Positions 40,466-59,181 of a stretch of 64,000 nucleotides of DNA are shown piece by piece. The stretch lies in NCBI GenBank assembly GCA_905234655.1, contig CAJOJG010000006.1:4709-68708 (forward strand). Direction: 5' to 3'. Positions within the stretch are counted from its first letter, which is position 1; each line of letters starts with the position of its first letter. This stretch comes from an uncultured Bacteroidales bacterium. Its GTDB lineage: Bacteria > Bacteroidota > Bacteroidia > Bacteroidales > UBA3824. The notes below the pieces were generated by a model. That model was not told where the DNA came from, searched no databases, and was given only the letters and a program-made list of their open reading frames with translations. Made by a program: the position numbers and the translations under genes.

Positions 40466-40691
40466 AAAAAATACTTGCAATGTATGAACAATGTTAATTT
40501 TCCGTTTCGTCATTCCCGACTATGTTAAATTAACAATATCGTCCAAACTTATAACAAAATCGTCCAAAAACGCCATTATGGACTATCATGTTAAATATTT
40601 GGACGATTTTAGCACGCGAGGGAAAAAATAGTTTGCAACTTTGTCATGTCAATCGGGAACAAATCCGGTTAACGTAAAATTAACAAACAAG

Positions 40692-43106
40692 ATGAACAAA
40701 AACTTTTTCATATCGTTAATCTTCTCGGCTGCGGCTCTCGCCTCGACCGCCCAAAACTCTGACATCCGCGAAGTGCCTTTTACAAAAGTGCATTTCACGG
40801 ACGACTTTTGGGCTTCGAGAATCGAGACCAACCGCACCGTTTCTATCCCGTCCGCTTTTAAGGAATGTGAGAAGAACGGAAGGTTCGACAATTTCGCCGT
40901 CGCAGCGGGAATCATTAAGAAAGAGCATCAGGGTGACTTCTCTTTTGACGATACCGACCCATACAAGGTAATCGAGGGCGCAAGTTACTCTCTCGCCGTC
41001 CATTACGACAAAAAACTCGACCATTACCTCGACAGCGTCATCAATCTCATCGCAAAGGCTCAAGAATCCGACGGATATATCACAACTTGTGTAACCAACA
41101 AATGCACAAGGCTTTCCGGCTGGTGGGGCACGCGCCGTTGGGAAAAAATCAACAGCCACGAACTTTACAATTCGGGTCATCTGATTGAATCCGCCGTCGC
41201 CCACTACCAAGCCACCGGCAAGCGCAATTTTCTCAACGTCGCAATCAAAAACGCCGACCTTATTTGTAAAGTGTTCGGCGCGGAAGACGGCAAAATCCAC
41301 CGCCCCTCGGGACACCCGATTGTCGAGATGGCTCTCTGCAAACTTTACAAAGTAACCGGCAAGAAGGAATACCTCGACATGGCTAAATATTTCGTCGAGG
41401 AAACCGGCCGCTGCACCGACGGACACCATCCGAGCGAGTACAGCCAAGACCACAAGCCGATTCTTCAGCAAGACGAAATCGTTGGACACGCCGTCCGCGC
41501 GGGCTACCTCTATTCGGGCGTTGCGGACGTTGCGGCCCTGACCGGCGACAAGGACTATTTCAACGCGCTCTGCCGCATCTGGGACAACATGGCGTCAAAA
41601 AAACTTTTCATCACCGGCGGCATCGGCTCGCGTCCGCAGGGCGAGGGTTTCGGCCCCAACTACGAACTCAACAACCACACCGCATATTGCGAGACCTGCG
41701 CCTCGATTGCCAATGTGTATTGGAATTACAGAATGTTTCTCGCAACGGGCGATTCCAAATACGTAGATGTCTATGAACGTGCGCTTTACAACGGCGTTAT
41801 GAGCGGCGTTTCGCTCTCTGGCGACACGTTTTTCTACGACAATCCGCTCGAAAGCGGCGGCGAACACGAAAGGGCGCCGTGGTTTGGCTGCGCTTGCTGT
41901 CCGGGCAACGTAACCCGCTTTGTGGCAAGCATTTCCAACTATGTTTACGCCACAAAAGGCAGCGACATCTACGTCAACCTCTACGCTCAAAACACCGCCG
42001 ACATCACCGCCGGCAAGAACGTCGTAAAACTCACACAATCAACCAAAATGCCGTGGGAAGGCGCGGTGGAAATCGCCGTCGAGCCCAAAAAGCAAGGCGA
42101 GTTCACAATCCTTCTTCGTCTGCCCTCGTGGTGCGGCGAAAAGCCAGTCTCGACCGACCTCTATTCCTTCACCGACAAGGTTGGACGTTACACCCTGAAA
42201 ATCAACGGCAAAGACTTCTCTGCAAACCTCGAAAAAGGCTACTTGGTAGTAAAACGCGTTTGGAAAAAAGGCGACAAAATCTCTCTCGATTTCCCGATGG
42301 ACATCCGCAAAATCAAGGCCAACGACAATGTAGAGGACGACCGTGGCAAAATCGCCCTTCAACGCGGCCCCGTTGTGTATTGCATCGAGGGCGTTGACAA
42401 TGGCAACTCGGTTTTTGACAAGTCAATCCTCAAAAACGAAAAAATCACTTACAAATACGAACCCGCGCTCTTGGGCGGCGTTGTAACGCTCACTGGCAAG
42501 GCTCTCGAACTCACTCAGGACGGCAATGTCAAAACCGTTGACTTCAAGGCGATTCCATATTCCACTTGGAACAACCGTGGCAACCACGAGATGGAAATTT
42601 GGATTGCCGAATCGCCCGCATACTCGCGCGTCAAGCCCGCCGAGACTATCGCCTCAAAAGCCACTTCGATTACGCTTCAAGCACCAATCCAAAAGGACGC
42701 GCCCGAAAGTGCCGCCGTGGAAGGCTGGGCATTTGGCGTCAACGACCAGTGGGACCCCCTGCGCTCGTCCTACACCGCCAAGCCGTACTTCTATTGGTGG
42801 CTCAAACAAGGCTCGAAAGAGACTTTGGCATACAAGTTCGACACCGCGACCGAGGTCAGCAACGTCCAACTCTACTGGCTCGAATTTGACCATTACGACG
42901 GCTCGTACCGCGTCCCCGAAAGTTGGAAACTCTTTTACAAGGACGGCGACACATTCAAGGAAGTCGAGTACCTCAGCCCCTGCACCGTCGAGAAAGACTG
43001 TTACAACAGCGTCAACTTCAAGCCCGTAAAGACCACCTCGCTCAAAATCGAAGTCCAACTGCAAAAAGGATTTTCCGGCGGCGTGTTGGAATGGAAAGTG
43101 AATTAG
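40692..43106 (+). CDS. GH127 beta-L-arabinofuranosidase-like (DUF1680) with extra C-terminal beta-sandwich domain
   Basis: The start was moved to MNKNFFISLIFSAAALASTAQ (ATG 40692). Motifs: HELYNSGHLIESAVAHY, GHPIVEMALCKLY, GHAVRAGYLYSG, AYCETCAS and GCACCPGNVTRF (the Glu/Cys Zn site and catalytic Cys context of HypBA1-type enzymes). The C-terminal ~150 aa is discoidin-like (NVQLYWLEFDH...GGVLEWKV). Confidence 0.9.
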   Translation: MNKNFFISLIFSAAALASTAQNSDIREVPFTKVHFTDDFWASRIETNRTVSIPSAFKECEKNGRFDNFAVAAGIIKKEHQGDFSFDDTDPYKVIEGASYSLAVHYDKKLDHYLDSVINLIAKAQESDGYITTCVTNKCTRLSGWWGTRRWEKINSHELYNSGHLIESAVAHYQATGKRNFLNVAIKNADLICKVFGAEDGKIHRPSGHPIVEMALCKLYKVTGKKEYLDMAKYFVEETGRCTDGHHPSEYSQDHKPILQQDEIVGHAVRAGYLYSGVADVAALTGDKDYFNALCRIWDNMASKKLFITGGIGSRPQGEGFGPNYELNNHTAYCETCASIANVYWNYRMFLATGDSKYVDVYERALYNGVMSGVSLSGDTFFYDNPLESGGEHERAPWFGCACCPGNVTRFVASISNYVYATKGSDIYVNLYAQNTADITAGKNVVKLTQSTKMPWEGAVEIAVEPKKQGEFTILLRLPSWCGEKPVSTDLYSFTDKVGRYTLKINGKDFSANLEKGYLVVKRVWKKGDKISLDFPMDIRKIKANDNVEDDRGKIALQRGPVVYCIEGVDNGNSVFDKSILKNEKITYKYEPALLGGVVTLTGKALELTQDGNVKTVDFKAIPYSTWNNRGNHEMEIWIAESPAYSRVKPAETIASKATSITLQAPIQKDAPESAAVEGWAFGVNDQWDPLRSSYTAKPYFYWWLKQGSKETLAYKFDTATEVSNVQLYWLEFDHYDGSYRVPESWKLFYKDGDTFKEVEYLSPCTVEKDCYNSVNFKPVKTTSLKIEVQLQKGFSGGVLEWKVN

Positions 43107-43236: not shown

Positions 43237-46200
43237 ATGAAGCAATTATTATTGACGGCGTTGCTGATAGCCGTCTCACTCTCGGCCTTTGCCCAGCACA
43301 AGGTAAACGGCAAAGTTACCGACCCAAATGGCGAGCCGATCATCGGCGCCAACATCATCATCAAAGGGACTACGACGGGTACTATTTCCGACTTGGACGG
43401 TAAGTACGGCCTCGACAACGTCCCCGACAATTCGACTTTGGCATTCTCGTTCATCGGCTACTTGACACAGGAATTTGTAATCAATTCCTCTAAGACTCTC
43501 AATGTTACCCTCAAAGAGGATGACAACGAACTCGAGCAGGTAGTCGTAATCGGCTACGGCACACAACGCAAGGGTGACGTTACATCCGCCGTAACGAGCG
43601 TCAAGGCCGACGAGTTTACCGAAGGCAAAATCAGCGACGCGGCTTCGCTTATCAAAGGCAAGGTGGCAGGCCTCAGCATCGTCAACTCTTCGGGCAACCC
43701 TACCGAATCGAGTTCGATAATGCTGCGCGGCATCACCACAATCACCGGCAATGTTTCGCCCCTTATCCTTATCGACGGCGTGGAAGGCACTCTCAACGAT
43801 GTCGCTCCTGAAAACATCGCCTCTATCGATGTCCTCAAAGACGCTTCCGCAGCCGCAATCTACGGTACACGTGGCGCAAATGGCGTTATCATCATCACAA
43901 CAAAGACCGGCAAGCGCGAGCAGAAACTCACCGCCGTCTATAACGGATATTTTTCTATGTCAAACTGGGCTAAGAAAGCCGACTTTATGGGTGTCAGCGA
44001 CATTATGTACGGCAAGACTTCGTTCAAAGACGAATTTGGCGACACCGACTGGCTCAAAGAAATATCCAATGACCACGGTTTTACGCAGAACCACTCGCTT
44101 ACTGTGACCGGCGGCAGCGCAAAATCCACATACTCGGGAAACATCTCGTACAACGACGAGGAAGGCATGATTAAAAACTCCGGCAACGAGAACATCAAAC
44201 TCCAGACAGACCTCACGCATTATGCTCTGAACGACATTGTCAAGTTCAACTTCAACACTCTCGTCCGCCAGCAGACATACGACATCAACAACAACCCGTA
44301 TGTATACCGCCAGGCAATCATCCGCAACCCGACCTCGCCTATTTATGACGAGGACGGCTCTTACCATGAGGACTTTAACAAACTCTACTATTACAATCCC
44401 GTCGAGATGCTTAACGAGTACGGCGGCGAGGCGCGCTACAGGACATACCGCATGACCGGCAACGTAACCGTCGAACCTATCAAAGGATGGCAGACCAACC
44501 TCATGCTCTCCCGCACCGAGGGTACGACTATCAGCCAGGAATATACCACAAAAAAGCATTACTCCTTAGTTCAGAAAGAAGACTATAACGGCTCGGCTTC
44601 CAAGAGCGAGGGTGGCGACAAACAGGACAACCTCGAAATCACTTCTAAATATGACAAGACAATCGGCAAGCACCGTTTCAATGTCCTCGTCGGTTATAGT
44701 TACCTTTACAGCATGTATGACGGTTTCTCCGCATCTAACGGCAACTTCCCTTCCGAGGCTTACCTCTACAACAACCTCCAACTCGGTACGCTCCTTACAG
44801 AGAAAGACCGCCACGCTGGAATGTCGTCCTATAAAAACGACAACACCCTCGTAGGTTTCTTCGGCCGTGTTTCATACGCTTTCGCCGACAAGTACAACCT
44901 CCTCGTCAGCGTCCGTCAGGAAGGCTCGTCGAAGTTTGGCAAGGACAACAAGTGGGGTACTTTCCCGTCGGTTTCCGCTGGCTGGACAATCTCCAAGGAA
45001 GAGTTCATGAGTGGAATCGAATGGCTTGACAACTTGAAAATCCGTGTCGGCTACGGTGTCACGGGCGTTATCCCCACAGACTCATACATCTCCCAGCGTC
45101 TTTACACGTATGATTCGTATGGCGACGTGCTCGCTCCCGACGGCACTTGGACAAAGACTTTGCAGTCTACGCAGAACCCAAATCCCGAACTTAAGTGGGA
45201 AACCACCAACGAAATTAACCTCGGCCTCGACTTCTCGGTTTTGAACGGCAGGGTTTCGGGTAGTTTCGACTACTATGTAAAGACAACCAAAGACTTGCTC
45301 TACGACTACGCAGTGCCTGTTCCGCCTAACCTGTTCCCGACTACTACCGCTAACGTCGGCGAGATGAAGAACAAGGGCTACGAACTTATGATTGAGGGCA
45401 AACCTTTCGTGGGCGACTTCACTTGGACCACGACACTCACAATGTCGGGCTATAAAAACGAACTCGTAAGCCTCTCCAACGACCTCTACGTTACCGACAA
45501 TTTCAAAGAGGAGGGCGGTCTCGGCGAGCCTATCTCAACTCCTACACACTACATGGAAGTCGGCAGCCCGCTCGGCGAATTTTGGGGACTTAAGTCTGTC
45601 GGCGTAGACAAGGACGGCTTTGTACTCGTAGAAGTCCGCGACGGCGACGGCTGGACTGTCAAGCCCTTCAACACCAACCTCAATGTCCAGGAAAACCGCC
45701 AAAAACTCGGTTCCGGTCTTCCTAAACTCTACCTCGGCTGGGGCAACACGTTCAACTACAAAGGCTTTGATCTCACGCTCCAGTTCACCGGTCAGTTTGG
45801 CTATAAGATTCTTAACGCCCAGCGTTGTTTCTACGAAAACAATTCAAGTTCGTACAACCGCTTGAAGACCGCCGCCGACACTTATGGCGCGGTATCCTAC
45901 AACAAGGAGACTAAGCAACTCGAGCCTGTCCTCGACGAGAACGGCAACCAACTCCAAGTTACGCTCTCGAAGTCGATGTCCCAAGGTTTTTGGTCCGACC
46001 ACTTGGAGAAGGGCGACTACCTCAAGCTCTCCAACATTACCTTGGGCTATAAGATTCCGATTCCCGACTCATTCCTCAAATATGTCAACGGCGCAAGGGT
46101 TTACGTTTCGGCATCAAACGTGTTCTGCATTACTGGATATTCGGGCATCGACCCCGAGGTTTCTAATTACTTCCTCGCCCCCGGCATCGACTATCAGGAC

Positions 46201-46251
46201 AAGTATCCCACGACACGTTCATTCTCATTCGGTTTAACTCTTAACTTCTAA
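43237..46251 (+). CDS. SusC/RagA-family transporter (third PUL)
   Basis: 1004 aa. Motifs: HKVNGKVTDPNGEPIIGANIIIKGTTTGTISDLDGKY, VVVIGYGTQRKGD, GANGVIIITTKTG. It ends ...FGLTLNF. Confidence 0.95.
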   Translation: MKQLLLTALLIAVSLSAFAQHKVNGKVTDPNGEPIIGANIIIKGTTTGTISDLDGKYGLDNVPDNSTLAFSFIGYLTQEFVINSSKTLNVTLKEDDNELEQVVVIGYGTQRKGDVTSAVTSVKADEFTEGKISDAASLIKGKVAGLSIVNSSGNPTESSSIMLRGITTITGNVSPLILIDGVEGTLNDVAPENIASIDVLKDASAAAIYGTRGANGVIIITTKTGKREQKLTAVYNGYFSMSNWAKKADFMGVSDIMYGKTSFKDEFGDTDWLKEISNDHGFTQNHSLTVTGGSAKSTYSGNISYNDEEGMIKNSGNENIKLQTDLTHYALNDIVKFNFNTLVRQQTYDINNNPYVYRQAIIRNPTSPIYDEDGSYHEDFNKLYYYNPVEMLNEYGGEARYRTYRMTGNVTVEPIKGWQTNLMLSRTEGTTISQEYTTKKHYSLVQKEDYNGSASKSEGGDKQDNLEITSKYDKTIGKHRFNVLVGYSYLYSMYDGFSASNGNFPSEAYLYNNLQLGTLLTEKDRHAGMSSYKNDNTLVGFFGRVSYAFADKYNLLVSVRQEGSSKFGKDNKWGTFPSVSAGWTISKEEFMSGIEWLDNLKIRVGYGVTGVIPTDSYISQRLYTYDSYGDVLAPDGTWTKTLQSTQNPNPELKWETTNEINLGLDFSVLNGRVSGSFDYYVKTTKDLLYDYAVPVPPNLFPTTTANVGEMKNKGYELMIEGKPFVGDFTWTTTLTMSGYKNELVSLSNDLYVTDNFKEEGGLGEPISTPTHYMEVGSPLGEFWGLKSVGVDKDGFVLVEVRDGDGWTVKPFNTNLNVQENRQKLGSGLPKLYLGWGNTFNYKGFDLTLQFTGQFGYKILNAQRCFYENNSSSYNRLKTAADTYGAVSYNKETKQLEPVLDENGNQLQVTLSKSMSQGFWSDHLEKGDYLKLSNITLGYKIPIPDSFLKYVNGARVYVSASNVFCITGYSGIDPEVSNYFLAPGIDYQDKYPTTRSFSFGLTLNF

Positions 46252-46264: not shown

Positions 46265-47974
46265 ATGAAAAAGATTTTTAAACATACATTCGCCGGTTTG
46301 TTGGCTGCCGGAATGGTCATGGGCGCGGGTTGTACCGATTTGGACGAGACCCTCTACGACCAACTTAACGAAACCAACATCGACTTCAACAGCGAGAAGG
46401 ATGTCGCCTCGATGATGGGACAGGCTATCGCGCAGTTCCGCTACACCCACCTTTCTTGGTTTGGCGCGTGGGAACTCATGGAGCAGTGCACAGACGTCTA
46501 CTGCGTGCCTTACCGCATCGGTGTGGGCTGGGGCGACCTCTATGTCAACCTCCACAAGCACAACTGGGACTACAACGTCGGACACGCCGAGAACATCTGG
46601 CTGTACGCCTATAAGTGCATCGGCTACTGCAACAGCACCCTCGACGTAATGCCCGAATCGAGCGCCGAGAACCGCGCCCAACTCAGGTTCTTCCGCGCGA
46701 TGACATACTATCTTCTCCTCGATCTTTTCCGTAACGTGCCAATCCTGACCACTATGAACGTCGAGGCGGGCTATCTCCCCGAGCAGTCCACCCCACAGCA
46801 GGTATTCGACTTCTGCGTGTCGGAGCTTGAGGACATAAAGGAGGCCATCGGCACCGACAAGAACTTCGGCTACGGAAATAAGTACACCGTCGAGATGGCT
46901 CTTGCAAAACTCTACCTCAACCGTGGCGTTTACCTCGAGCTCGCCGACAACAAGGAAGGCTATGAGAAGGCTCTCGAATATGCCTCGGACGTCATCGACA
47001 ACGGCGGCTACTCGCTCTCCGCAAAATATTCCGACAACTTCCGCGAAGACCTTTCCGCAAACAACGAAATCATCTTTGCAATCCCCGAGGACCGCACCCA
47101 CGCAAAGCATTTCCTCCTCCACACCTACTCGTTCCCCAACGACGGCATGAAGGCTTTCGCTTCCACCGCTAACGCTACTAACGGAAGTTGCTGTGTGCCG
47201 CAGTTCTACGACTCATACAGCGACAAAGACCTCCGCCGCGACCAGACTTGGACGGTCGGCATACAATACGAGGCTTTGAAGAATGCCGACGGCACGTACA
47301 CTCCGTGGGGCGACAAGACAAAGCCAATCGCCTTCGGCAACGACAACTGGAAAGACCCCAAGTACCTTTGCTATTCTAAGGAAGTACACTCCATGGACAA
47401 CCCCGGCGCATACCAGCAGGAAGGCGCGAGGATGTGCAAGTACGAAATCCCGGCCGGTGAGTATGGCACCAATGTAGACGACATTCCGATTTTCCGCTTG
47501 GCGGACGCTATGTTCATCAAGGCTGAATGTCTCCTCCGCCTTGGCAAGGACGAGGCCACAGCCGCCCAACTCATCACCGACGTGCGCAAGCGCGCATTCG
47601 CCGACGCAGCCGACGCTACACGTACTGTAGCCCAACTCAAAGGCGGCTCGGCATATAAATACGGACACGAGGAGTGTACTTCCACTGGCTGCACTGTCTG
47701 GACAGACTGGGTGAAGACCGAAGAGGGTGGCGACGACATCGAGCTCGGCGGACTTTTGGACGACCTTGCATGGGAGTTTGTAGGCGAGGAACACCGCCGC
47801 CAGGATTTGATCCGTTTCAAACTCAACGACGGACGCAACGTATTCAACGGCAAATCGTGGTTCTGCAAAGACGCTACGACTTCGACAACGTACAACCTGT
47901 TCCCGATACCGAAACTTGCCCTCGACGCCAACGTCAAGATGAAGCAAAACCCCGGCTATTCGGGCGCACAATAA
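46265..47974 (+). CDS. SusD/RagB-family lipoprotein
   Basis: 569 aa. Lipobox MGAGCTDLDE. Motifs: LRFFRAMTYYLLLDLF, LADAMFIKAECLLRLG, DLAWEFVGEEHRRQDLIRF. Confidence 0.95.
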   Translation: MKKIFKHTFAGLLAAGMVMGAGCTDLDETLYDQLNETNIDFNSEKDVASMMGQAIAQFRYTHLSWFGAWELMEQCTDVYCVPYRIGVGWGDLYVNLHKHNWDYNVGHAENIWLYAYKCIGYCNSTLDVMPESSAENRAQLRFFRAMTYYLLLDLFRNVPILTTMNVEAGYLPEQSTPQQVFDFCVSELEDIKEAIGTDKNFGYGNKYTVEMALAKLYLNRGVYLELADNKEGYEKALEYASDVIDNGGYSLSAKYSDNFREDLSANNEIIFAIPEDRTHAKHFLLHTYSFPNDGMKAFASTANATNGSCCVPQFYDSYSDKDLRRDQTWTVGIQYEALKNADGTYTPWGDKTKPIAFGNDNWKDPKYLCYSKEVHSMDNPGAYQQEGARMCKYEIPAGEYGTNVDDIPIFRLADAMFIKAECLLRLGKDEATAAQLITDVRKRAFADAADATRTVAQLKGGSAYKYGHEECTSTGCTVWTDWVKTEEGGDDIELGGLLDDLAWEFVGEEHRRQDLIRFKLNDGRNVFNGKSWFCKDATTSTTYNLFPIPKLALDANVKMKQNPGYSGAQ

Positions 47975-48061: not shown

Positions 48062-49690
48062 ATGAAAAAGTTATTCTTTTGGGCTGCTGCCGCGCTTTTC
48101 GCTGGCGCAGTCCTGACAACAAGCTGCAACAAGGACGACGACGACAACAACGGTGGCACTACGAGCGACATCGACGAGCGTAAGCGCATCCAGGACTCTA
48201 TTCAGAGGGTTCAGGACAGCCTCGCCCAGATCGTCAAGGCCAACAAGATTATCGATGTCGACGTAGAGTTCACAGCATCCGAGACTTCCTACGACGGCAC
48301 AAAGTTCACTGTCGATGTCGCTACAATCGCTAAGGAACTTGGCATCACTGAAGACGAGTTCCTCAAAGGCATCGAAGGCAAGGACGGCGGTGCAGAGGTT
48401 GTAACCTACACCATCCAGTCTGATGGCAACGAACTCATCGGCACCAACACACAGAAAGGCGCATCAGAGAAAGGCTGGGGCCACTGGTTCACCGCCAAGG
48501 GCGATGTAACCACTTGGAGTGAAGGTCAGGCTGCCGATTATAGCATCACATACGCTGGTCAGGCTGTAATCTTCACCGATTTCCACAGGGTAAGCGACGA
48601 CAGCAACGAGTTTGAATGTGTAGTTGGTCAGTTCCCTGCAAAGTTGGCTGAGGCTGGTCTCGTCGGTCAGACCTACACAATCAAGGAAGGTGTCAAGTAC
48701 GACGACGTAAAGGTCGTTCTCCAAATCAAAGTCAGCATTAAGGGTCTTGAAGAACTCAAAGCCGAAGTCGTTGACTCCAAGGAACTCACTCTCACAACTG
48801 CCGTTTATGACAGCCACGAAGACTACATCGAACTCGATTCCACCGAAATCCTCTCTAAACTCGGCGCGACTTCGTTTGCAGACTGCAAGTTTGTAGCCAT
48901 CAAGGCCGACGGCTCTTACGCTCAGGAACCCGACGATCCTGCATTGGGTCTCTACTGGGAGAATCTCGACGGCGAGGCTTCAGGCTACACTGACGGCAAC
49001 TTCTACATTGGCTACGCTCACGCCGCCGACAACGAAAACCGTGGCAAACTCATCATCGGCCAGTACGGCCACAAACTCCAAGTTCCCGAAGCCGAAGGCT
49101 CTGAAACCAAGGTTGACTTCACTGGCGACTTCACCGCTCGTTGGGGCGTGTTCTACAACAACAAGGTCGTCATGGTCAACGTAAAAGTAACCATCGCATC
49201 TTACGAAGATCCCGATGCTGGCACATTCACAGGAACTCCCGCATCGTCTGAAAAGGCTTACGACGCCATCGAAAGGGCTTACGAACTCGGCTACGATGCA
49301 ACAGTCGTTGACGTTAAGGAACAGCTCCAGACCACATTCCAGATGACATGCTACGAAATCTACCAAGCATTCCAGGCTGGCACATTGAAACTCTACGCTG
49401 CCAACATCGCCGACACAGACCCCGAATACACTGGTGAAAAGCCTGGCTACTGGCTCGACAAGGACGGCAAGGGCATTGCATACGCTAACGGCCTCGTGTA
49501 CGCTAACCTCGTTGTTAACGACTTCGCTAATCAGAAGCTCATCATCAATGTTGGCCACCACCCCGAAAACACAAAAGCAGGTGTTGAAGTCAACATCAAA
49601 CTTATCGTCACCAACGGCACAGTAAACGCAGTAATCACCGTTCCTGTAAAGGTTGCTGCACAACTCCCCGCTGAAACTCCCGCTGAGTAG
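48062..49690 (+). CDS. Hypothetical surface lipoprotein (SGBP position)
   Basis: 542 aa. Lipobox LTTSCNKDDDDNN. It is beta-rich with no family motif I recognise, and sits directly downstream of SusD. Confidence 0.65.
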   Translation: MKKLFFWAAAALFAGAVLTTSCNKDDDDNNGGTTSDIDERKRIQDSIQRVQDSLAQIVKANKIIDVDVEFTASETSYDGTKFTVDVATIAKELGITEDEFLKGIEGKDGGAEVVTYTIQSDGNELIGTNTQKGASEKGWGHWFTAKGDVTTWSEGQAADYSITYAGQAVIFTDFHRVSDDSNEFECVVGQFPAKLAEAGLVGQTYTIKEGVKYDDVKVVLQIKVSIKGLEELKAEVVDSKELTLTTAVYDSHEDYIELDSTEILSKLGATSFADCKFVAIKADGSYAQEPDDPALGLYWENLDGEASGYTDGNFYIGYAHAADNENRGKLIIGQYGHKLQVPEAEGSETKVDFTGDFTARWGVFYNNKVVMVNVKVTIASYEDPDAGTFTGTPASSEKAYDAIERAYELGYDATVVDVKEQLQTTFQMTCYEIYQAFQAGTLKLYAANIADTDPEYTGEKPGYWLDKDGKGIAYANGLVYANLVVNDFANQKLIINVGHHPENTKAGVEVNIKLIVTNGTVNAVITVPVKVAAQLPAETPAE

Positions 49691-49987: not shown

Positions 49988-52333
49988 ATGAGAAAGTTTA
50001 ACAAAATATTCGCGCTTCTGATGGTGTTCGCACTTTGCGCAATGTCGATGGCATCGTGCAACAAGGACGACGACGACGACAAACAGTCCGACAACGCCGA
50101 CACTACCCAAAACAGCGGCGGCGGCTTGGTAACAAGCCAGTACATAACATTCCAAAAAGACTATTCAAACTTTGAAATTGAATCAACGACGACATTCACC
50201 CGCATCAACTTCGTCGCCACCGCAGACTGGAAGGCAGAAGTCGTAGGAGCCGACTATGTGACGCTCTCCGTCACTGAAGGCACTGCAAGTGCGGGCGTCG
50301 TCAAGATGAACGTGAAACTGTCCTCCGACAACGAGGGCAACCCTTCGCGCTCGTTTCAAGTTAAGATAACAGCCGGAGGCGAGGAAGCCATCGTCACCAT
50401 AAAGCAGAAAGGCAGCGACGTAATCGTCCTCGAAGAAAAAGACATCCAGGATTTGGACAAGTTCCACAAACCCTCCGAGTTCAATTACGACATGTTGCGC
50501 TCCACATCAAAATTCTCCTGGGTGCGCAGCAAACAATCCGAACACTTTGTATGCTTCTGGGAGGCCGGCTACGGCGACGACCCCAAGACTGCAAAACACC
50601 CCGTCGATGTTGACGACATGCTCCAAAAATGCGAGCAGTTTTACAAGACCAACGTCGAAACACTCAAAATGGCTACCACGGGGCAGGGCAAATCCTACCT
50701 CGACAAATATAAAATGGAAATCTTCATCCTCGACACCGACGACTGGACTTGCGTGGGTTCTGGCTACGACAATGTAATCGGCGCGCTTTGGGTCAATTGG
50801 CAGCCCTGCCAGCCCGTCGGAAGTGCCGTGGCTCACGAGGTGGGACACTCGTTCCAATATCAGGTGTTCTGCGACAAGATCCTCAACGGCGAAGTTACCG
50901 TTGCCAATCAAGGCGCGCCCACCGCAGAGGAGGCCATCTACGGCTACCGTTACGGCTTTGGTCCCAACGGCGACGGCGGCTGTGCATTCTGGGAACAGTG
51001 CGCACAGTGGCAGAGTTTCCAAGACTATCCTAACGAGGCTTTCGACCAGTCTTACAACCTTTTCACTAAGAACACACACCGCCATTTCCACTCGCCGTGG
51101 ATGCGTTACCAGTGCTACTGGTTCCAGTATTACTTCACCAACAAGCACGGCCTTGATTCCTACGGAAAACTTTGGAACCAAGCAAAATACCCCGAAGACG
51201 CTCTCGAAACCTACACCCGTCTGTATTGCAACGGCGACCTCGAAAAATTCTACGACGAATACTACGACTACGCCTCGCGCGCCGTCATCTACGACTACGG
51301 CACAATCCATTCGTATTGGAACGCCGGTTATTCCTCATACAACACCACGATGCTCGAAGTGGACGGCAAGTTCCGCCCGGCATACGCAAGTTGCCCGTCC
51401 TCTACCGGCTTTAACATCATCGGCCTCAACTGCCCCGCAAAAGGCACTAAGGTCAGCGTAAGCCTTTCCGCATTGCCCACCGGCTCAAAGCTCGCTTCCA
51501 CCGATGCCGGCACAATCGTCAACGGCGACGGCCCCACCGGCTCCACCGCCACCAACTACAACGAAAACAAATATTTCGACAACCAGTATTACAACGAATC
51601 TTACGCCAACTACCGCTTTGGTTTTGTGGCAGTTAAGAACGGCACAGCCACCTACGGCGCAATGGCCACCGGCAGCAAGGATGCAGTTGCCGAAATGGAC
51701 TTGACCGACGACTACGACGAACTCTATCTCGTCGTTGCCGCAACGCCCACCAAGTATTTCCGCCAGTATTGGGACGAGAAGGAAGAAAACGACATGCAGT
51801 GGCCATACGAAATCTCCTTCACCGGCACCAACATCCTCGGCTTTGTAGAGATACCCGCCGGCGACCCGCAGGATGTCGAGGTTTCGCTTGACGTAACCTG
51901 CGACGCATCGCGCCAGGAATACGAGCAAGGCTCGGTAAACCTCCTCTCGAAAGGCATCATGGACAAGATAGCCGTCGCCCTCAAACTTCAGCCCGCCGAG
52001 ATAGCCGCAGCAATGGCTGCGCCGGCAGTCAATCAGACCGGTAAGGTAGCCGAAGGCAAGGTAACATTCGGACTTACAGAAACCACTGGCAAAATCAACT
52101 ACACCTACACCGCCAACGCCGGCTTCTGGGCTAACGCCATGGGCAACGCTACCAACTGGGGCGACAATGCTCCCGTATATATCGAATACACCCCATCTAC
52201 CTCCGTCCTCGTCTATGGACACAGGGGCGGGCAGACCAAGGCCGGCGACAAGTACGTCCTCAAGCCCACCTTCACCTACATGAAAGACGGCAAAGAGTAC
52301 CACGCCGTCATCAAATTGACGATGCAGTTTTAA
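49988..52333 (+). CDS. BACON-like domain + HExxH (gluzincin-like) lipoprotein, paralog 1
   Basis: 781 aa. Lipobox MASCNKDDDDD. The BACON-like module is FVATADWKAEVVGADYVTLSVTEG...NPSRSFQVKITAGGEEAIVTIKQKG. HEVGH lies at 50834-50848 in AVAHEVGHSFQYQ, with a downstream conserved Glu (FWEQCAQW) and YWFQYYFTNKHG...YTRLYCNGD shared with the paralogs. Confidence 0.75.
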   Translation: MRKFNKIFALLMVFALCAMSMASCNKDDDDDKQSDNADTTQNSGGGLVTSQYITFQKDYSNFEIESTTTFTRINFVATADWKAEVVGADYVTLSVTEGTASAGVVKMNVKLSSDNEGNPSRSFQVKITAGGEEAIVTIKQKGSDVIVLEEKDIQDLDKFHKPSEFNYDMLRSTSKFSWVRSKQSEHFVCFWEAGYGDDPKTAKHPVDVDDMLQKCEQFYKTNVETLKMATTGQGKSYLDKYKMEIFILDTDDWTCVGSGYDNVIGALWVNWQPCQPVGSAVAHEVGHSFQYQVFCDKILNGEVTVANQGAPTAEEAIYGYRYGFGPNGDGGCAFWEQCAQWQSFQDYPNEAFDQSYNLFTKNTHRHFHSPWMRYQCYWFQYYFTNKHGLDSYGKLWNQAKYPEDALETYTRLYCNGDLEKFYDEYYDYASRAVIYDYGTIHSYWNAGYSSYNTTMLEVDGKFRPAYASCPSSTGFNIIGLNCPAKGTKVSVSLSALPTGSKLASTDAGTIVNGDGPTGSTATNYNENKYFDNQYYNESYANYRFGFVAVKNGTATYGAMATGSKDAVAEMDLTDDYDELYLVVAATPTKYFRQYWDEKEENDMQWPYEISFTGTNILGFVEIPAGDPQDVEVSLDVTCDASRQEYEQGSVNLLSKGIMDKIAVALKLQPAEIAAAMAAPAVNQTGKVAEGKVTFGLTETTGKINYTYTANAGFWANAMGNATNWGDNAPVYIEYTPSTSVLVYGHRGGQTKAGDKYVLKPTFTYMKDGKEYHAVIKLTMQF

Positions 52334-52427: not shown

Positions 52428-54266
52428 ATGAAAAGGTTTATTAAAATATTCATCCTCTTTCTCGTAACGGCACTATCGTTCGCCGCCTGCCACGACAAGG
52501 ACGACATACAACCGTCCGAGGAGGAGCGTTTCACCATCAAAATGATTGATGATGACAGCACTTATGTTATGAACTTCTGTGTTGGCAAACTAATCTACGA
52601 TACAGAAAATGAATGTTATGCTTTTTTCCCCGATATGCTTTATGGTAAACCATTCACCAGCGGTCAAGAACTTGGCAACACATTGCTTTTGAAGAGCATT
52701 CCCGACACACTGAAGGCATATACCGATTCTACTTTGGTTATTGCTGGAACATATACACCCATCTGTATCAAAACAGAAAACGGTACAAATTGCCCTTGGA
52801 TTGAATGTATTTTCGATGCTGAAATCACTTGGGCTGCACCATACAAAATTGTTTATGGTGGTGGATGTGATACCGAAGGCACAGAGCCATCGAGTTGGGT
52901 CTTTGACAAATCGATTTCAAAGGCCGCTGACAAAACATGGTATTTTATTAAAATATTTGTACATATCGTTGAGCCTTCAAGCGATACCCATCGTCCTCCT
53001 CTTGACAAGGTTGAGGTATCAGATAGTGTGATAAATAAATTGAACCGTGCTTATGCGGGACATGGTATATCTTTTGTACTTTCAGGAAATGATTGCATTA
53101 AAGATGATGCCGCCTTCAATTTGACAAGTAACGATGCAAATAAAATATTTAATTACAAATTCAAGTATGATGCAATAAATGTTTATGTTTTCTCTTATGA
53201 TAACAAACTGGATCGTCTTTGGGGGCGTGCGCAATGCATTACATCTACAGCATGCTTGATAAAAGATGCGTGTTATTACGTTGGAGAAACACTTCCACAC
53301 GAAATTGGACATTGTTTAGGTCTGTATCATACCCATCATGGAACAGCACAAACAGAGTCAGGAATCCCTGAACTTGTCAACGGTTCTAATTCCGAGGTTG
53401 CTGGTGATTATATATCTGATACGCCAGCAGACCCCAACCAGTGGATGAATTGTTCGTATTCTGGTATAGGACGTGATGCTAATGGTCAAGTATATCATCC
53501 TGACCCTCTTAACATGATGTCCTATTCTCATATTCAGACTTACAAAGGTATTACGCAACATTTTACTCCTTTGCAATTTGAACGCATGAGAAACACACTT
53601 AGAAGAGACAATAATTTGAAAAAAACTTTTTTGAAAGTTGATGTTTCCGGACCAGATTATTTGACAAGCCCAAGTAATTATTCAGTGGAATTGCCTACGT
53701 CCCTGACATATTCCACCCAATGGATGGTCAGTTGTTCAACCTTGTTCCGTGAGTCAGGTTCTGTTTCTAACTATACGAAATATTTTATGGGAGAAAGTAT
53801 TTCGATTACCCCACTGAATAAGTCGGTAGGCTCCGATTCGTATTCGATAACAGCAAAAGCCGTTAACGCCGACCAATATGTCTATACGCTGACTAAGAAA
53901 GTTTATACGTTGCGTCCGTCCGACCAGACAGGTCTGTTGAAATGGACTTTTGTTGACAAAAACAGAAACACAGCATTCGGATATTTGAATATGGATGCCT
54001 CAAACGGCAGTTCGGTCATAAGGCTTACATCTGAGGGTTATCTGACGTTCAGGTACATAGATGCTGTCGGAGTGGATTCTTATTACAATTCATTTCCATG
54101 CAGTTTCAATTTCTTTGACGCAATTTCCAACAACGCCCTGCAAAAAAACGGCAGTTGCAAGTTTTACGTTAAACCTATTCAGGGAATAGTATCAAATAAC
54201 GCGGTTTTGAATATGAACGTTTGTGGATATTCAAAAATCATAAGATTCCAATTCCAAATCAAATAA
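52428..54266 (+). CDS. M43 (pappalysin/cytophagalysin-type) metzincin lipoprotein
   Basis: 612 aa. Lipobox SFAACHDKDD. The extended zinc motif HEIGHCLGLYH lies at 53298-53330, with AGDYISDTPADP downstream. The body of the gene is AT-rich. Confidence 0.8.
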   Translation: MKRFIKIFILFLVTALSFAACHDKDDIQPSEEERFTIKMIDDDSTYVMNFCVGKLIYDTENECYAFFPDMLYGKPFTSGQELGNTLLLKSIPDTLKAYTDSTLVIAGTYTPICIKTENGTNCPWIECIFDAEITWAAPYKIVYGGGCDTEGTEPSSWVFDKSISKAADKTWYFIKIFVHIVEPSSDTHRPPLDKVEVSDSVINKLNRAYAGHGISFVLSGNDCIKDDAAFNLTSNDANKIFNYKFKYDAINVYVFSYDNKLDRLWGRAQCITSTACLIKDACYYVGETLPHEIGHCLGLYHTHHGTAQTESGIPELVNGSNSEVAGDYISDTPADPNQWMNCSYSGIGRDANGQVYHPDPLNMMSYSHIQTYKGITQHFTPLQFERMRNTLRRDNNLKKTFLKVDVSGPDYLTSPSNYSVELPTSLTYSTQWMVSCSTLFRESGSVSNYTKYFMGESISITPLNKSVGSDSYSITAKAVNADQYVYTLTKKVYTLRPSDQTGLLKWTFVDKNRNTAFGYLNMDASNGSSVIRLTSEGYLTFRYIDAVGVDSYYNSFPCSFNFFDAISNNALQKNGSCKFYVKPIQGIVSNNAVLNMNVCGYSKIIRFQFQIK

Positions 54267-54342
54267 TAATTCGTCATCCGCGTATGGGAGGTAATCAATG
54301 TTTGCCTCCTATATGCAAATGACTTTTTAATAGTAACATATT

Positions 54343-55689
54343 ATGAAAAAAATAATCTACATATTAACCCTTGTTTTCGTAACGGCATCAATTGCCTGTT
54401 ACGACAAGGACGATTTGACCGCCTTGACGGAACAAGAAATGCCTGAAGTGGAGGCAATCGAATTGTCCGATACTGTTTTGTCCAACGCCGTAACGTTTGA
54501 AGAAGCCCGTAAAGATTTGGAAATCTTTTTGAAAGATTTTCCAACGCTCACCAAGAAAGGCGGAATAAGCACACGGACAATCAGCGGCGGCTTCACCCTC
54601 GAAAGCGAGAAAAAGTCGTTGAAGAAGTCCACCGGCGACACATCGACGGCGAAAATCCACGTGTTCAATTTCGAGGACGACGGCGGATTCGCCATAATGT
54701 CGGCAACGCGCGACCTGCCCGCACTCTTGGCAATCACCGACGGCGGTAATATTGATACCAACGAAACGATTGACAATCCAGGATTGATTATGTTTTTGAC
54801 CAACTTAGAGGCAAAGATGCTTAACGGTGGAGTTGAACGACAAATTGATACTATAAGTTTAGATGGCAATATTCAAAGTGAGAAGAATAGTCTTTCTAAA
54901 TTGTATTATACATATTATAAAAATAAAATATATAAGCCTCAAAATGAGTGCCCAAATTGGCACCAAGAATCGCCGTATAATGAATATTGTAAAACAGATT
55001 CAGGAGAGACTGCTGTTGTCGGATGCGTTGCGGTTGCTTGTGCTCAATTAATGGCAATTTATCATTATCCACAGAAATACCAGACAAAGGTTTTTAACTG
55101 GGATAAAATGGTTGACAATAAAAATAAAGATAAAAATGATGTAGCCTGGTTATTGCAACAACTTGGTGATAAGTTTAATTTGGATATGACATACGGAAAA
55201 ACCGGAAGTAGTGCCTATCCTGATAATATTCCACGAACATTAAAAAATTTTGGATATAGTAACGGTGGAAAACTTGAAAACTACGTTACTTACAAAATAT
55301 GTAATGAATTAATAGGTAATCATCCAGTCTTAATCGGTGGATGTTCACATAAAATTTTTAGTAATGTTTTCGGTACTAATTGTAGTTCTGTGTCTTATGA
55401 AGGAAGTCATAGATGGATTGGCTATGGTCTGTTAGTGCGGACTAAAGAAGAATGTCACATTTAACAAAAAAATGGTAATACAGAGTTTAATTACAAAACT
55501 ATTGGTTCTGATTATTACATTTTGTGCAATATGGGGCAGGGAAAATCCAAAAAATGCAACGGCTACTATCTTAGCGGAGTGTTCGACACTGACGAAGGAG
55601 TTGTTTTCCCAGATGACTATAGCAAAAGAAGTGGTAAAGATGGCTATTTTCAATACAAAATGACCGCCGTAACAGGCATTAGAAAATAA
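54343..55689 (+). pseudogene. Peptidase C10 (streptopain-like) lipoprotein interrupted by an in-frame TAA; degenerate catalytic region
   Basis: Lipobox ASIACYDKDD. The Spi-type prodomain reads IHVFNFEDDGGFAIMSATRDLPALLAITDGG. The catalytic Cys context is VVGCVAVACAQLMAIYHYP (Cys codon 55024-55026) and the His context is EGSHRWIGYG. The stop TAA at 55462-55464 is followed in the same frame by QKNGNTEFNYKTIGSDYYILCNMGQGKSKKCNGYYLSGVFD...IRK (stop 55687-55689). That tail is the C10 C-terminal region, with the usual NWGWGG reading NMGQGK. Confidence 0.7.
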
Positions 55690-55702
55690 ATAGGAGGTTA
55701 TT

Positions 55703-56428
55703 ATGAAACATTTATTGTTCATTTTGGCATTTATTACCATTTGCATCGTTTCCTGCGGACGGGACGATGACAAGACTGATGTCAGTCATTCGGGTGGCGT
55801 TAGAGACAGCGTTAAACATTATCCCGAGGATGGACGTATAATGTCCGATTATTACATTCAGGTTTTCATCGACCCTGACACCATAGAAGTGTGGCAGAAA
55901 GAGTATTACGGCTTGAAACCATATATTGCTGTTATGTTCGACGGTTATCAATACGACTGCAAAGGTTGGGGTGGTACGGAAGACTATGCGATTTTCAAAA
56001 AACATTCGGACATTCTCGGTGATTCTTTGTTTTCAGGGTTGTTAATTCCGTTCAGCAACAGGATAATCATTGGAGAACTTATGGAAATCAACGTCGTAAC
56101 CATCGATGATTTTGACGAGGAACATAAAAGCGGCAGTTCAGTTTCTGACATAATCACTTTTTATGGTTCGTCGCCGGTCGATTATATTAAAAATGGCTAC
56201 AAAAGCACAAAAGAATATTCAAAAGATTTGCCCGCAGGCATATCTTATGTGTACGACCTTATCAAGTACAATGCGTCGTCTATAGGCCAGGAAAAAGTAA
56301 GTTATATAGATTACTACTTTTTCCTCTGTTTCGACCGCCTTCCCTCGTCCCCCGGCACCTACACTTTTGAAATAGAAATCAAACTCTCTCAAAAAACTTT
56401 GAAAAACAAGGTAACGATGGAGTTTTAA
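55703..56428 (+). CDS. Hypothetical lipoprotein
   Basis: 241 aa. Lipobox CIVSCGRDDDK. It is preceded by AGGAGG 7 nt upstream of the ATG. I recognise no family motif. Confidence 0.6.
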   Translation: MKHLLFILAFITICIVSCGRDDDKTDVSHSGGVRDSVKHYPEDGRIMSDYYIQVFIDPDTIEVWQKEYYGLKPYIAVMFDGYQYDCKGWGGTEDYAIFKKHSDILGDSLFSGLLIPFSNRIIIGELMEINVVTIDDFDEEHKSGSSVSDIITFYGSSPVDYIKNGYKSTKEYSKDLPAGISYVYDLIKYNASSIGQEKVSYIDYYFFLCFDRLPSSPGTYTFEIEIKLSQKTLKNKVTMEF

Positions 56429-56449: not shown

Positions 56450-57754
56450 ATGAAGACGTCAAAAATAATCCTGACATTATTCCTCTCTGCCGCGCTGATT
56501 TTTCAGGCGTGCAACAAGGACGACGACGACCCCGTTGTTGACCCAGACAACCCCGACCCTGACAGCGGCGAGAAAGTAGAGGGAATCGACACAATTTCTA
56601 AGTTCAAAGTCGCTAAAATGGTGATAACCACTGAGAACGGCGCGACGATTAACGGCAAGGACAAAGCCGATTACGTCAACTGCACCATCGCCATCGAAAG
56701 CGAAAAAGAAGAGTGGAACACCACCGTTACGGGACGAATCCGTGGGCGCGGCAACTCATCTTGGAAGTGGTACGACAAAAAGCCCTACCGCCTCAAACTC
56801 GACGAAAAGTCCAAAATCCTCGGCCTGCGTTCCAACAAAGACTGGAACCTTCTCGCCAACTACCGCGACGCAACCGACCTGATGAACACTTTTGTCTTTG
56901 AACTCGGTCAACTTGCGGGTCTCGGTTACACCAACAACACCCGTTACGTGGAAATCACCTTGAACGGCGATTACATTGGTCTTTACCAACTTACGGAGAC
57001 CATCGAGGCCGCCAAAGACCGTGTCGACATCGACAAGGACAACGGCATTATCCTCTCGCTCGACGCTGACGACGGCCCTGAACTCTCGCCCGATGCCACC
57101 GACAATTTTTGGAGTGAGGTTTATTATATGCCGTGCTGCGTCAAGAATCCCGACAAGCCCACCGCCGCTCAGGTCAAGGCTGTAATGGACGAGTTTGCGG
57201 AACTTGAATACGCTGTCTATCAGCACGATTACAACGATTTTTCTGCCCTTGCCGACATCGACGCTTTCATCAACTACCTGTTGATTCAGGAGTTGGTGTA
57301 TAACGTCGAAGTCGCCGCGCCGAGGAGCATTTACCTTTATAAAGACGTCAACCAAAAATGGGGCTTCGGACCATTGTGGGATTTTGACGCGGGCTACGAC
57401 TTCGACTGGGGTTCAATGTATACTGGACACAATTTCTTCATGTCGTACAAGGAGTCAGTATTGGGAACCGACCCCAAGACCCACGACGGTGGTTACAGTT
57501 ACGTGCCGGAATTTTTCACTGACATGTTCCGCAGCAAGGAGTTCGTCCAGCACGTCCAAAACAACTGGCTCGACCTCGCCGGCCTTATCCCGCAGGCTTG
57601 GGCAAACGCTCAAAAATACGACATCTCAGCCGCCCTTGAACGCGACCTAAAACGTTGGCCGATAGACAAATCCCCCACCGTCGAAACCAAAAAGATGGGC
57701 GACTGGCTCACCAACCGCACAAACTACATGAACACCGTCGTCGGCGGGTATTAA
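56450..57754 (+). CDS. CotH kinase-fold family lipoprotein
   Basis: 434 aa. Lipobox FQACNKDDDDP. CotH signatures: GRIRGRGNSSWKWYDKKPYRLKLD, KDWNLLANYRDATDLMN, YVEITLNGDYIGLYQLTE, GPLWDFDAGYDFDWG. Confidence 0.8.
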   Translation: MKTSKIILTLFLSAALIFQACNKDDDDPVVDPDNPDPDSGEKVEGIDTISKFKVAKMVITTENGATINGKDKADYVNCTIAIESEKEEWNTTVTGRIRGRGNSSWKWYDKKPYRLKLDEKSKILGLRSNKDWNLLANYRDATDLMNTFVFELGQLAGLGYTNNTRYVEITLNGDYIGLYQLTETIEAAKDRVDIDKDNGIILSLDADDGPELSPDATDNFWSEVYYMPCCVKNPDKPTAAQVKAVMDEFAELEYAVYQHDYNDFSALADIDAFINYLLIQELVYNVEVAAPRSIYLYKDVNQKWGFGPLWDFDAGYDFDWGSMYTGHNFFMSYKESVLGTDPKTHDGGYSYVPEFFTDMFRSKEFVQHVQNNWLDLAGLIPQAWANAQKYDISAALERDLKRWPIDKSPTVETKKMGDWLTNRTNYMNTVVGGY

Positions 57755-57891: not shown

Positions 57892-59181
57892 ATGAAACCG
57901 ATATTGAAACTACTCTTCCCCCTGTCGCTTTTTGCGGCGGCGGCGTGCAACAACGAGAGTGAAAACGTTGTTGCGCCCAACATCGAGGGCAAGCAAATCT
58001 TCGTCCCCAAAGACCTGGCGGACAACCTTGTAAACAATCCTTCCGACACTTCGTCGTGGAGTTACAGCCGCATGTCGCTCACTGACAATTTCGCAATCTT
58101 TTGGCAGAAAGGCTTTGGCGACAGCCTCAACAATCCGCCCGACCTCGATGGCAAGAAGATGAGCGTTGACCTCGACAACTTGCAAAAAAAGTTGGAATAT
58201 TTCTACGGCTATTACCGTGATTCACTGAAATTTATCGGTGAAAATTCCCTCGCCCAAAAATACCGCATGATGATAATGCTGTGGTATTCGCTCGAAGGCA
58301 CGGCATACGGCGGCGACTACGACCAGACGATTGGTGCGTTTTGGGTTGCGCCAAACAGGATTCAGGACACCGCGCTCAACTGTGTCGCCCACGAACTCGG
58401 ACACTCGTTCCAGATGCAGGCGCAGATTGACAAAGGCGGCCTGACCGAGGACAATTATTGGGATTGCGGGCCGTTTTACGAGATGGCCTCGCAGTTCATG
58501 CTTTGGCGGGTCAACCCCGACTGGATTCGCGACGAAAAATACCATTGGGACGCTTACCGCGAACAGTCTTTCAAGGCGTTCCTCTCTTGGGAAAACGCCT
58601 ACCACACGCCCTATGTGCTTGAATATTGGGCAGAAAAGCGCGGCGCGGACATCATCGCCAAGATGTTTCAGAACGCGAAAAAAGGCGAGGACGCGGTGGA
58701 CGTTTACAAGCGTCTGACGGGCATTTCGCAGGAGGATTTCAACATCGAAATGATGGAGGCCAACTGCAAGACTTTGAATTTGGATTTTTCACACGCATAC
58801 GCCAACACCCGCCAGTTTGTATTGCCGTTCTCGACCAAAATGCACGCTGTATCAGACGGTTACATAGAGGTTGACGACGCAAACCGTCCCGAAAATTATG
58901 GTTTCAACGCCATCGAAATCGACTTTCGCGGCAAGGAGGCCATCACCGCCGACTTTGTGCCGGAGCGCAACGACAACGTCAAGTTTTACACCCAGTTTGT
59001 CGGCATCGACAACGGCGGCAAGACGGTCTACGGCGGCATCAACGCCAACAGTTTCAAGATTCCCGACGGTCTTAAAACGTTGTACTACGTCGTGATGCCC
59101 GCCCCGCTCGTGCATTTCCACAACGTCGAAGACCCCGAAACCCAGAAAAATCCAAACTACGGATATAAGGTAAAAATGTAA
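57892..59181 (+). CDS. HExxH (gluzincin-like) lipoprotein, paralog 2 (no BACON module)
   Basis: 429 aa. Lipobox AAAACNNESEN. HELGH lies at 58390-58404 in CVAHELGHSFQMQ, with a downstream Glu in FYEMASQF. Confidence 0.75.
   Translation: MKPILKLLFPLSLFAAAACNNESENVVAPNIEGKQIFVPKDLADNLVNNPSDTSSWSYSRMSLTDNFAIFWQKGFGDSLNNPPDLDGKKMSVDLDNLQKKLEYFYGYYRDSLKFIGENSLAQKYRMMIMLWYSLEGTAYGGDYDQTIGAFWVAPNRIQDTALNCVAHELGHSFQMQAQIDKGGLTEDNYWDCGPFYEMASQFMLWRVNPDWIRDEKYHWDAYREQSFKAFLSWENAYHTPYVLEYWAEKRGADIIAKMFQNAKKGEDAVDVYKRLTGISQEDFNIEMMEANCKTLNLDFSHAYANTRQFVLPFSTKMHAVSDGYIEVDDANRPENYGFNAIEIDFRGKEAITADFVPERNDNVKFYTQFVGIDNGGKTVYGGINANSFKIPDGLKTLYYVVMPAPLVHFHNVEDPETQKNPNYGYKVKM

Follow-up and report, generated by a model that had tools for sequence, protein, structure and literature searches.

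The 64,000-nucleotide stretch analyzed here, referred to as the window, comes from an uncultured Bacteroidales bacterium and covers positions 4709-68708 of contig C6 (CAJOJG010000006.1) in a 129-contig assembly of 3.39 Mb. The open reading frame (ORF) listing of the window contains three forward-strand genes, called paralogs 1, 2, and 3, that encode lipoproteins of the DUF6055 family. Our subject is these three proteins and the SusC/SusD gene cluster in which they are embedded. All coordinates are collected in Table 1.

Three diverged members of the DUF6055 family

The three proteins match the Pfam family PF19527 (DUF6055) with E-values of 2e-115, 5e-105, and 2e-91 and scores of 386.5, 352.4, and 307.5 bits, against a gathering score of 27 bits, and the matches cover model positions 4-416 of 417. 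Paralog 3 extends beyond the window; the complete protein scores 306.7 bits. An earlier note on this DNA, written from the letters alone, had suggested the name DUF6055, and the name proves correct for all three. Each protein shows the signature of the family, A-H-E-x-G-H-[SCAT]-F-Q ... E-x-x-[AS]-Q ... Y. In the alignment, AHE(V/L)GHSFQ followed by a later Glu is common to the three ORFs, and a YWFQY...RLYCN.D block is common to paralogs 1 and 3. The shared blocks, including the restriction of the second one to two of the three lipoprotein genes, had been read from the sequence and are borne out by alignment, translation, and the PF19527 matches, at a level well above coincidence. The N-terminal BACON module proposed for paralogs 1 and 3 is confirmed as well. 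Paralog 2 had been described as the bare catalytic core, which is not accurate: DUF6055 is its only Pfam content, and the protein also holds a C-terminal β-sandwich that forms part of the DUF6055 model.

Pairwise identity among the paralogs is 25-32%. A tree built from 124 members of the family assigns each of them to a different, well-supported clade, where its nearer orthologs come from other genomes. Both observations rule out a recent triplication, so the term ‘triplicated’ used for these genes does not stand in that sense; they point instead to old paralogs that were kept together. Judged by sequence, the three genes are old, diverged paralogs within a catalogued family, and no other DUF6055 match occurs in the whole assembly.

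The suggestion that the family could be undescribed or only a domain of unknown function is half right. It is a DUF in Pfam, but it has a distant characterized relative, Svx/AvrXca, and one paper gives it a peptidase family number: a fungal DUF6055 protein has been placed in MEROPS family M106, with its function said to be unknown (PMC11241649). The window proteins match PF19527, equated with M106 in that paper, over its full length and show no structural difference from it. A literature search, with subscription journals outside its coverage, found no paper on DUF6055 function or on a Bacteroidales extensin locus. The family itself is thus known, with one characterized distant relative, and the value of the present analysis lies in a testable hypothesis at the level of the locus.

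Metallopeptidase motif and predicted fold

A search of 1.84 billion cluster representatives returned 422 relatives, 121 of which, drawn from 50%-identity clusters, cover the HExxH-Glu site. Of these 121 representatives, 119 retain the first His of HExxH, 120 its Glu, 118 its second His, and 119 the distal Glu, and all four residues are invariant in the three paralogs and 34 homologs; the conservation check proposed in the earlier note thus came out in its favor. Phe173, Gln174, Gln/Asn201, and Tyr237 are likewise conserved among the 121 representatives, and the position four residues past the distal Glu is Gln in 109 and Asn in seven. The spacer between the second His and the distal Glu measures 48, 25, and 19 residues in paralogs 1, 2, and 3, outside the claimed range of 20-40 residues in two of the three cases. 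The gluzincin third-ligand pattern suggested for this Glu is supported, both by its conservation and by the predicted fold.

Paralog 2 was modeled with AlphaFold2 on the basis of 34 sequences, with a predicted local distance difference test (pLDDT) score of 89.9 and a predicted template-modeling (TM) score of 0.87. HELGH lies inside a helix of the model that spans residues 163-179, and Glu197 lies in the long helix that follows, residues 194-207. The best Foldseek matches of this model in the PDB are M1 aminopeptidases and the M60 O-glycopeptidase ZmpB (E 5e-6 to 1e-4, probability ~1), and the top 31 matches are all M1 or M60 peptidases (E 5e-6 to 4e-3, probability 0.82-1.0), a metallopeptidase answer to the structure-prediction check. 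Next after the peptidases come carbohydrate-binding modules (CBMs) of families CBM22 and CBM6, which match the C-terminal β-sandwich. A full-length AlphaFold2 model of paralog 1 (pLDDT 85.1) finds the BACON-bearing enzyme BoGH5A (3zmr) as its best match; immunoglobulin-like and BACON matches dominated that search, from which nothing was learned on DUF4859.

The three catalytic regions match no second Pfam peptidase family even at E<=10, including the M60 family PF13402, which agrees with the earlier reading that they are not M43, M64, or thermolysin by sequence. PDB sequence and profile searches with the DUF6055 proteins gave nothing meaningful, and a PHROGs search gave no match. The metzincin motif HExxHxxGxxH is absent, since HE(V/L)GHSFQ(Y/M/F)Q lacks both the Gly and the third His of that motif. 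The M1 exopeptidase motif GxMEN is found in none of the three paralogs, and none of their spacers equals the X18 of M1. Motif conservation and model together indicate that the three proteins are very probably metallopeptidases. The two His of HExxH and the Glu on the following helix would serve as zinc ligands, with the HExxH Glu as the presumed catalytic base.

The surrounding locus and its counterparts in other genomes

The DUF6055 genes belong to a gene cluster with the organization of a polysaccharide utilization locus (PUL): adjacent SusC and SusD genes are co-oriented with enzymes and a regulator, and the arrangement is conserved elsewhere (Table 1). The earlier note, sound at the level of the proteins, had missed this context, which is the pointer to a substrate.

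Table 1. Features of the DUF6055 locus. Plain numbers are window positions; L004 coordinates refer to sequence that continues past the window end.
Feature	Coordinates	Strand	Remarks
Regulator	37430..40231	-	Divergent; Reg_prop/Y_Y_Y sensor and AraC helix-turn-helix
GH127 β-L-arabinofuranosidase-family enzyme	40641..43106	+	Plain signal peptide
SusC-like TonB-dependent transporter	43237..46251	+
SusD-like lipoprotein	46265..47974	+
DUF4859 x3 lipoprotein	48062..49690	+	Follows SusD; position conserved in other loci
Paralog 1, DUF6055, long type	49988..52333	+	781 aa; lipoprotein
Paralog 1 domains			BACON aa 81-141 (50228-50410); DUF6055 aa 158-616; DUF4859 aa 645-766
Paralog 1 lipobox	50057-50059		Cys24, then NKDDDDD
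Paralog 1 site	50834-50848; 50993-50995		HEVGH; distal Glu336 (alignment and direct translation)
M43-like metzincin lipoprotein	52428..54266	+	In AT-rich insert
C10 cysteine peptidase with I69 prodomain, lipoprotein	54343..55464	+	In AT-rich insert
241-aa lipoprotein	55703..56428	+	In AT-rich insert; no family given
CotH-family surface lipoprotein	56450..57754	+	Between long and short DUF6055 genes
Paralog 2, DUF6055, short type	57892..59181	+	429 aa; lipoprotein
Paralog 2 lipobox	57946-57948		Cys19, then NNESEN
Paralog 2 site	58390-58404; 58480-58482		HELGH; Glu197
Paralog 2 C-terminus			CBM-like β-sandwich, ~aa 315-429 (AlphaFold2 model and Foldseek)
GH97 (α-galactosidase type) + zincin domain fusion	59316..62000	+	Plain signal peptide
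Paralog 3, DUF6055	62235..64000 in window	+	Runs past window end; full gene 726 aa (L004:44-2224)
Paralog 3 domains			BACON + DUF6055 + DUF4859; architecture of paralog 1
Paralog 3 lipobox	62289-62291		Cys19, then NKDKDDD
Paralog 3 site	63069-63083; 63141-63143		HELGH; Glu303
GH43	L004:8917-11265		Past window end on contig C6
Second GH127	L004:11311-13800		Past window end on contig C6

The GH127 and GH97 glycosidases of the locus resemble enzymes of known structure. The GH127 protein inside the window is closest to 6ex6 (E 6e-201) and matches HypBA1 (3wkw) with an E-value of 7e-101. The GH97 protein is closest to solved α-galactosidases (3a24, E 3e-171) and scores 761 bits against the NCBIfam model ‘retaining alpha-galactosidase’. 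Its 245-residue C-terminal zincin domain carries HEFSH...EYFAEG, and the profile of this domain weakly matches an ATLF-like PDB chain (9g0j, E 0.05) in an alignment that takes in HEFAH and EEYFAE. Twelve related loci have the same fusion, at 52-59% identity; the zincin domain also occurs as a stand-alone gene (L045:6087-6725). GH127 and GH43, candidate β- and α-L-arabinofuranosidases, are combined in one cluster, as in hypBA-type clusters. No endo-glycanase is encoded in the locus.

Other genes of the locus are less easily placed. The protein with three DUF4859 modules, a module that also ends paralogs 1 and 3, is probably a surface substrate-binding protein. It occupies the position of a surface glycan-binding protein (SGBP), and DUF4859 is a common module of this locus type, which makes DUF4859 a candidate new substrate-binding domain. 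The CotH protein belongs to a kinase-fold family and carries a surface-lipoprotein signal. The M43-like, C10, and 241-residue lipoprotein genes lie in an insert (52428..56428) with a GC content of 0.33-0.43, as against ~0.52 in the flanks; the AT-rich island around them extends over positions 52400-56600. In the regulator, Pfam detects no HisKA, HATPase, kinase, or receiver domain; related loci carry full hybrid two-component system (HTCS) regulators of 1300 residues, which stand beside the short DUF6055 gene in other genomes. The interval between paralog 3 and the GH43-GH127 pair (L004:2325-8749) holds a small ORF with a type IX secretion sorting tail, a 1273-residue Rhs/FG-GAP/SpvB toxin-like gene, and small ORFs. 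Upstream of the regulator, positions 5793-35729 contain another two to three SusC/SusD loci, apparently xylan-directed, whose products include GH10, GH5, a SASA esterase, an SGBP-B-like protein, and a DUF6057 protein (23243-25003).

The export signals divide the products of the locus into two groups. A lipobox Cys followed by acidic residues is the pattern of surface-exported Bacteroidota lipoproteins. Reading of the N-termini finds it in the SusD protein, the DUF4859 protein, the three DUF6055 proteins, the M43-like and C10 peptidases, the 241-residue lipoprotein, and CotH, whereas all four glycosidases (two GH127, GH43, and GH97) have ordinary signal peptides. This split leaves the peptidases and CotH as the only predicted surface enzymes of the locus, and the glycosidases, from families known for exo-activity, are predicted to be periplasmic. 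The DUF6055 proteins are likely to be the surface endo-acting enzymes of the locus.

To compare the arrangement across genomes, we drew on the gene tables of two homologs and mapped 80 loci from named genomes by tblastn. The recurring order is GH127-SusC-SusD-DUF4859-long DUF6055-[CotH]-short DUF6055. It continues with an HTCS regulator in some loci and with GH97 fusion-GH43-GH127 in others, to which an S9 DPP-IV peptidase is sometimes joined. In other genomes, DUF6055 genes are preceded by SusC and SusD orthologs of 50-66% identity, and 11-12 of 48 related loci have CotH at its position between the long and the short DUF6055 gene. Carriers of the locus include Bacteroides intestinalis, B. reticulotermitis, B. 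timonensis, Phocaeicola, Parabacteroides hominis, Segatella copri, Xylanibacter ruminicola, Muribaculaceae, Alistipes, and metagenome-assembled genomes from the rumen. B. intestinalis also has a locus named ‘PUL8’, described as a β-L-arabinose locus of unknown natural substrate (PMC11949833). The DUF6055 locus of this species could not be equated with PUL8, as the published PUL8 glycosidase gene numbers do not fit the gene order.

The locus of the closest relative (L096) has a paralog-3 ortholog of 80% identity, three DUF6055 genes, and the Rhs island, and contains neither an M43-like nor a C10 gene. In their place stands a gene for a 249-residue protein that, on visual inspection, faintly and non-significantly resembles the N-terminal region of the M43-like protein. 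Another variant has three tandem DUF6055 genes followed by GH127. A distant genome carries SusC-SusD-DUF4859x3-BACON/DUF6055/DUF4859-CotH/DUF4859 with no glycosidase at all, and CotH is fused to DUF4859 in a distant Bacteroidales genome (L097:11798-13534). From this variation, the invariant core of the locus emerges as SusC/SusD with DUF4859 and DUF6055, often accompanied by CotH. DUF6055 has other contexts too: a 1084-residue protein (L098:7303-10557) combines an unassigned 580-residue N-terminal half with a C-terminal DUF6055, and its gene lies among housekeeping genes (BamA-like, ProRS), outside any PUL. In an even sample at the order level, 11 of 151 genomes carry DUF6055 above the cut-off.

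Proposed substrate, rival explanations, and known systems

The surface enzymes of the locus are predicted peptidases, and its glycosidases are absent from some related loci, which argues that the substrate has a polypeptide rather than a polysaccharide backbone. Extensins carry hydroxyproline (Hyp)-linked β- and α-L-arabinofuranosides and Ser-linked α-galactose, and the set of GH127, GH43, and α-galactosidase fits these short glycans; extensin-type hydroxyproline-rich glycoproteins (HRGPs) of plants suggest themselves as the substrate, an assignment to which we give roughly even chances, perhaps slightly better. In the proposed mechanism, the three DUF6055 enzymes, lipid-anchored on the outer cell surface, would form the polymer-cleaving front end of the SusC/SusD locus and cut plant HRGPs, while BACON, DUF4859, and the CBM-like β-sandwich would hold them on the glycosylated substrate. 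The resulting glycopeptides would be imported via SusC/SusD. In the periplasm, the two GH127 enzymes, GH43, and the GH97 α-galactosidase would strip the sugars, and the GH97-fused zincin domain, with S9 DPP-IV also present in other genomes, would trim the peptides. The three diverged paralogs probably serve different sequence or glycoform contexts. On balance, we favor with moderate confidence the overall reading of the DUF6055 proteins as surface zinc endopeptidases of an HRGP-utilization locus. A bolder version, offered tentatively, would make them glycan-guided gut ‘extensinases’, DUF4859 a new glycoprotein-binding module, and CotH a further surface activity on that glycoprotein. Bacteroidales such as Bacteroides, Segatella, and Xylanibacter would then gain access to plant HRGPs by way of a SusC/SusD locus that cuts its polymer by proteolysis in place of glycosidic cleavage.

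Several points weigh against this assignment. The literature search found no biochemical data on any Bacteroidales DUF6055 protein, the family being named in one paper. The alignments with M1 and M60 structures extend over the catalytic core alone, which keeps the TM-scores at ~0.3 and makes the likeness a local one. The Trp-Gly pair of Svx to which its authors ascribe sugar binding, at -4/-3 from the first His in the numbering of PMC9266454 (which also puts an Asn at +4 from the Glu), is not conserved: position -4 is N/S/G/Q and position -3 is T/V/A/C. In the even order-level sample, GH127 lies within 10 kb of only two of eight DUF6055 copies, which come from five of the 11 carrier genomes, so a family-wide link to GH127 was rejected and the association is clade-specific. 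The locus ORFs scanned contain no GH121 arabinobiosidase or hydroxyproline catabolism genes. GH97 enzymes can also be β-L-arabinopyranosidases (PMC11949833). The best solved match of the GH127 enzyme itself is 6ex6, which may be a B. thetaiotaomicron arabinogalactan-protein (AGP) enzyme; if it is, the match speaks for AGP as much as for extensin.

The last point bears on an explanation with the same chemistry and cellular location and a different arabinosylated or galactosylated glycoprotein as substrate, such as AGPs, gums, solanaceous lectins, or algal and fungal wall glycoproteins. Besides 6ex6 being the closest solved GH127 in place of HypBA1, it draws on the occurrence of the core of SusC/SusD, DUF4859, DUF6055, and CotH without GH127 in some genomes, on GH97 relatives that free L-arabinose from synthetic arabino-glycans, and on the statement of a 2024 study that Bacteroides loci rich in β-L-arabinose-cleaving enzymes have no validated natural substrate (both PMC11949833). 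Breakdown of AGPs normally needs β-1,3/1,6-galactanases, β-galactosidases, and glucuronidases, however, none of which is present in the locus or its conserved version, whereas GH127, GH43, and α-galactosidase are the exact exo-enzyme set for the short glycans of extensin. We regard a different glycoprotein as unlikely, though a candidate to be kept in mind. It is rather improbable that the DUF6055 proteins work at the surface as proteases indifferent to glycans, scavenging protein from the diet or the host, with the arabinofuranosidase genes beside them only by accident. Svx does cleave unglycosylated azocasein (PMC9266454), some DUF6055 genes, such as that of the 1084-residue protein, stand outside any PUL, and the Trp-Gly of Svx and M60 is not conserved; but the gene order with GH127, GH97, and GH43 recurs over many Bacteroidales lineages, BACON, DUF4859, and CBM-like modules are built into the enzymes, and the locus has its own SusC/SusD pair and DUF4859 binding protein.

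A role as mucin-type O-glycopeptidases acting on host mucus in the manner of M60-like enzymes has very little probability, even with ZmpB among the top Foldseek matches and gut bacteria as carriers. It is opposed by the missing PF13402 match and by the neighboring L-arabinofuranosidases, since animals make no L-arabinofuranosides; sialidase, GH101, GH129, GH20, and sulfatase genes are absent from the scanned locus, and the carriers include plant-fiber degraders of the rumen and the termite gut. Equally remote is the idea that the proteins are catalytically dead binders on a retained metalloprotease fold. Nothing specific speaks for it beyond the frequency of surface binding proteins in PULs and the binding modules present here, and pseudo-enzymes would not be expected to retain the metal-binding and catalytic residues, all four of which persist in the three paralogs and in 118-120 of the 121 diverse representatives.

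Extensins and related HRGPs make up a sizeable, protease-resistant share of dietary plant cell walls. If the HRGP reading is true, the unstudied DUF6055 family gains a function and a widespread Bacteroidales locus gains a substrate, and the locus would illustrate how peptidases that attack a plant glycoprotein can feed a SusC/SusD system.

The hypBA1-hypBA2-hypAA cluster of Bifidobacterium longum likewise combines GH127 and GH43, and its enzymes HypBA1 (GH127) and HypAA (GH43) act on the Hyp-linked arabinosides of extensin (PMC7263609, PMC6085000). It differs in importing through an ABC system, in carrying a surface GH121 arabinobiosidase, and in lacking a dedicated endopeptidase, whereas the locus described here has SusC/SusD, predicted surface peptidases, and no GH121. 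A proline-directed peptidase adjoins the Xanthomonas version of the hypBA-type cluster and several of the Bacteroidales loci, there as S9 DPP-IV. Of the M60-like peptidases, Clostridium perfringens ZmpB (PDB 5kdn) ranks with the closest structures (E 1.5e-5, probability 1.0), and both groups have the gluzincin pattern. With M60-like enzymes, those of Bacteroides mucin loci included, the DUF6055 proteins share the concept of a peptidase for a glycoprotein backbone encoded beside exo-glycosidases. They part from this family in sequence and in overall TM-score, as described above, and the glycosidases next to DUF6055 aim at plant arabinofuranosides, not mucin glycans.

The closest characterized relatives are Svx/AvrXca of Pectobacterium, Dickeya, and Xanthomonas, which are likewise secreted by plant-degrading bacteria. 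Against the NCBIfam model NF040510 (Svx/AvrXca), paralog 3 scores 43 bits (E 2.5e-11) in a match that spans its peptidase domain, paralog 1 scores 28.8 bits, and paralog 2 gives no match; no paralog reaches the equivalog cut-off of 625 bits, and the homology is distant. The HExxH...E site and a polar Asn or Gln four residues past the Glu are shared. Experiments showed Svx of Pectobacterium to be an EDTA-sensitive, Zn-restorable gluzincin peptidase of the form HExxH-X22-E, in which mutation of either motif Glu lowered activity about three-fold (PMC9266454). The DUF6055 paralogs have spacers of 19, 25, or 48 residues in place of the 22 of Svx. Docking predicts that Svx accepts α-glycosylated extensin peptides (PMC9266454, PMC10815107), so both groups are predicted to attack extensin, in the case of Svx from docking only. 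Svx is a soluble secreted protein with a C-terminal acyltransferase-like domain (PMC10815107). In contrast, the DUF6055 proteins are lipoproteins with BACON, CBM-like sandwich, and DUF4859 modules inside a SusC/SusD locus; Pfam and Foldseek detect no acyltransferase-type family in them, and their C-terminal parts consist of β-sandwich and DUF4859. The link to Svx would tie a nutrient system of gut commensals to a family of plant-pathogen virulence factors.

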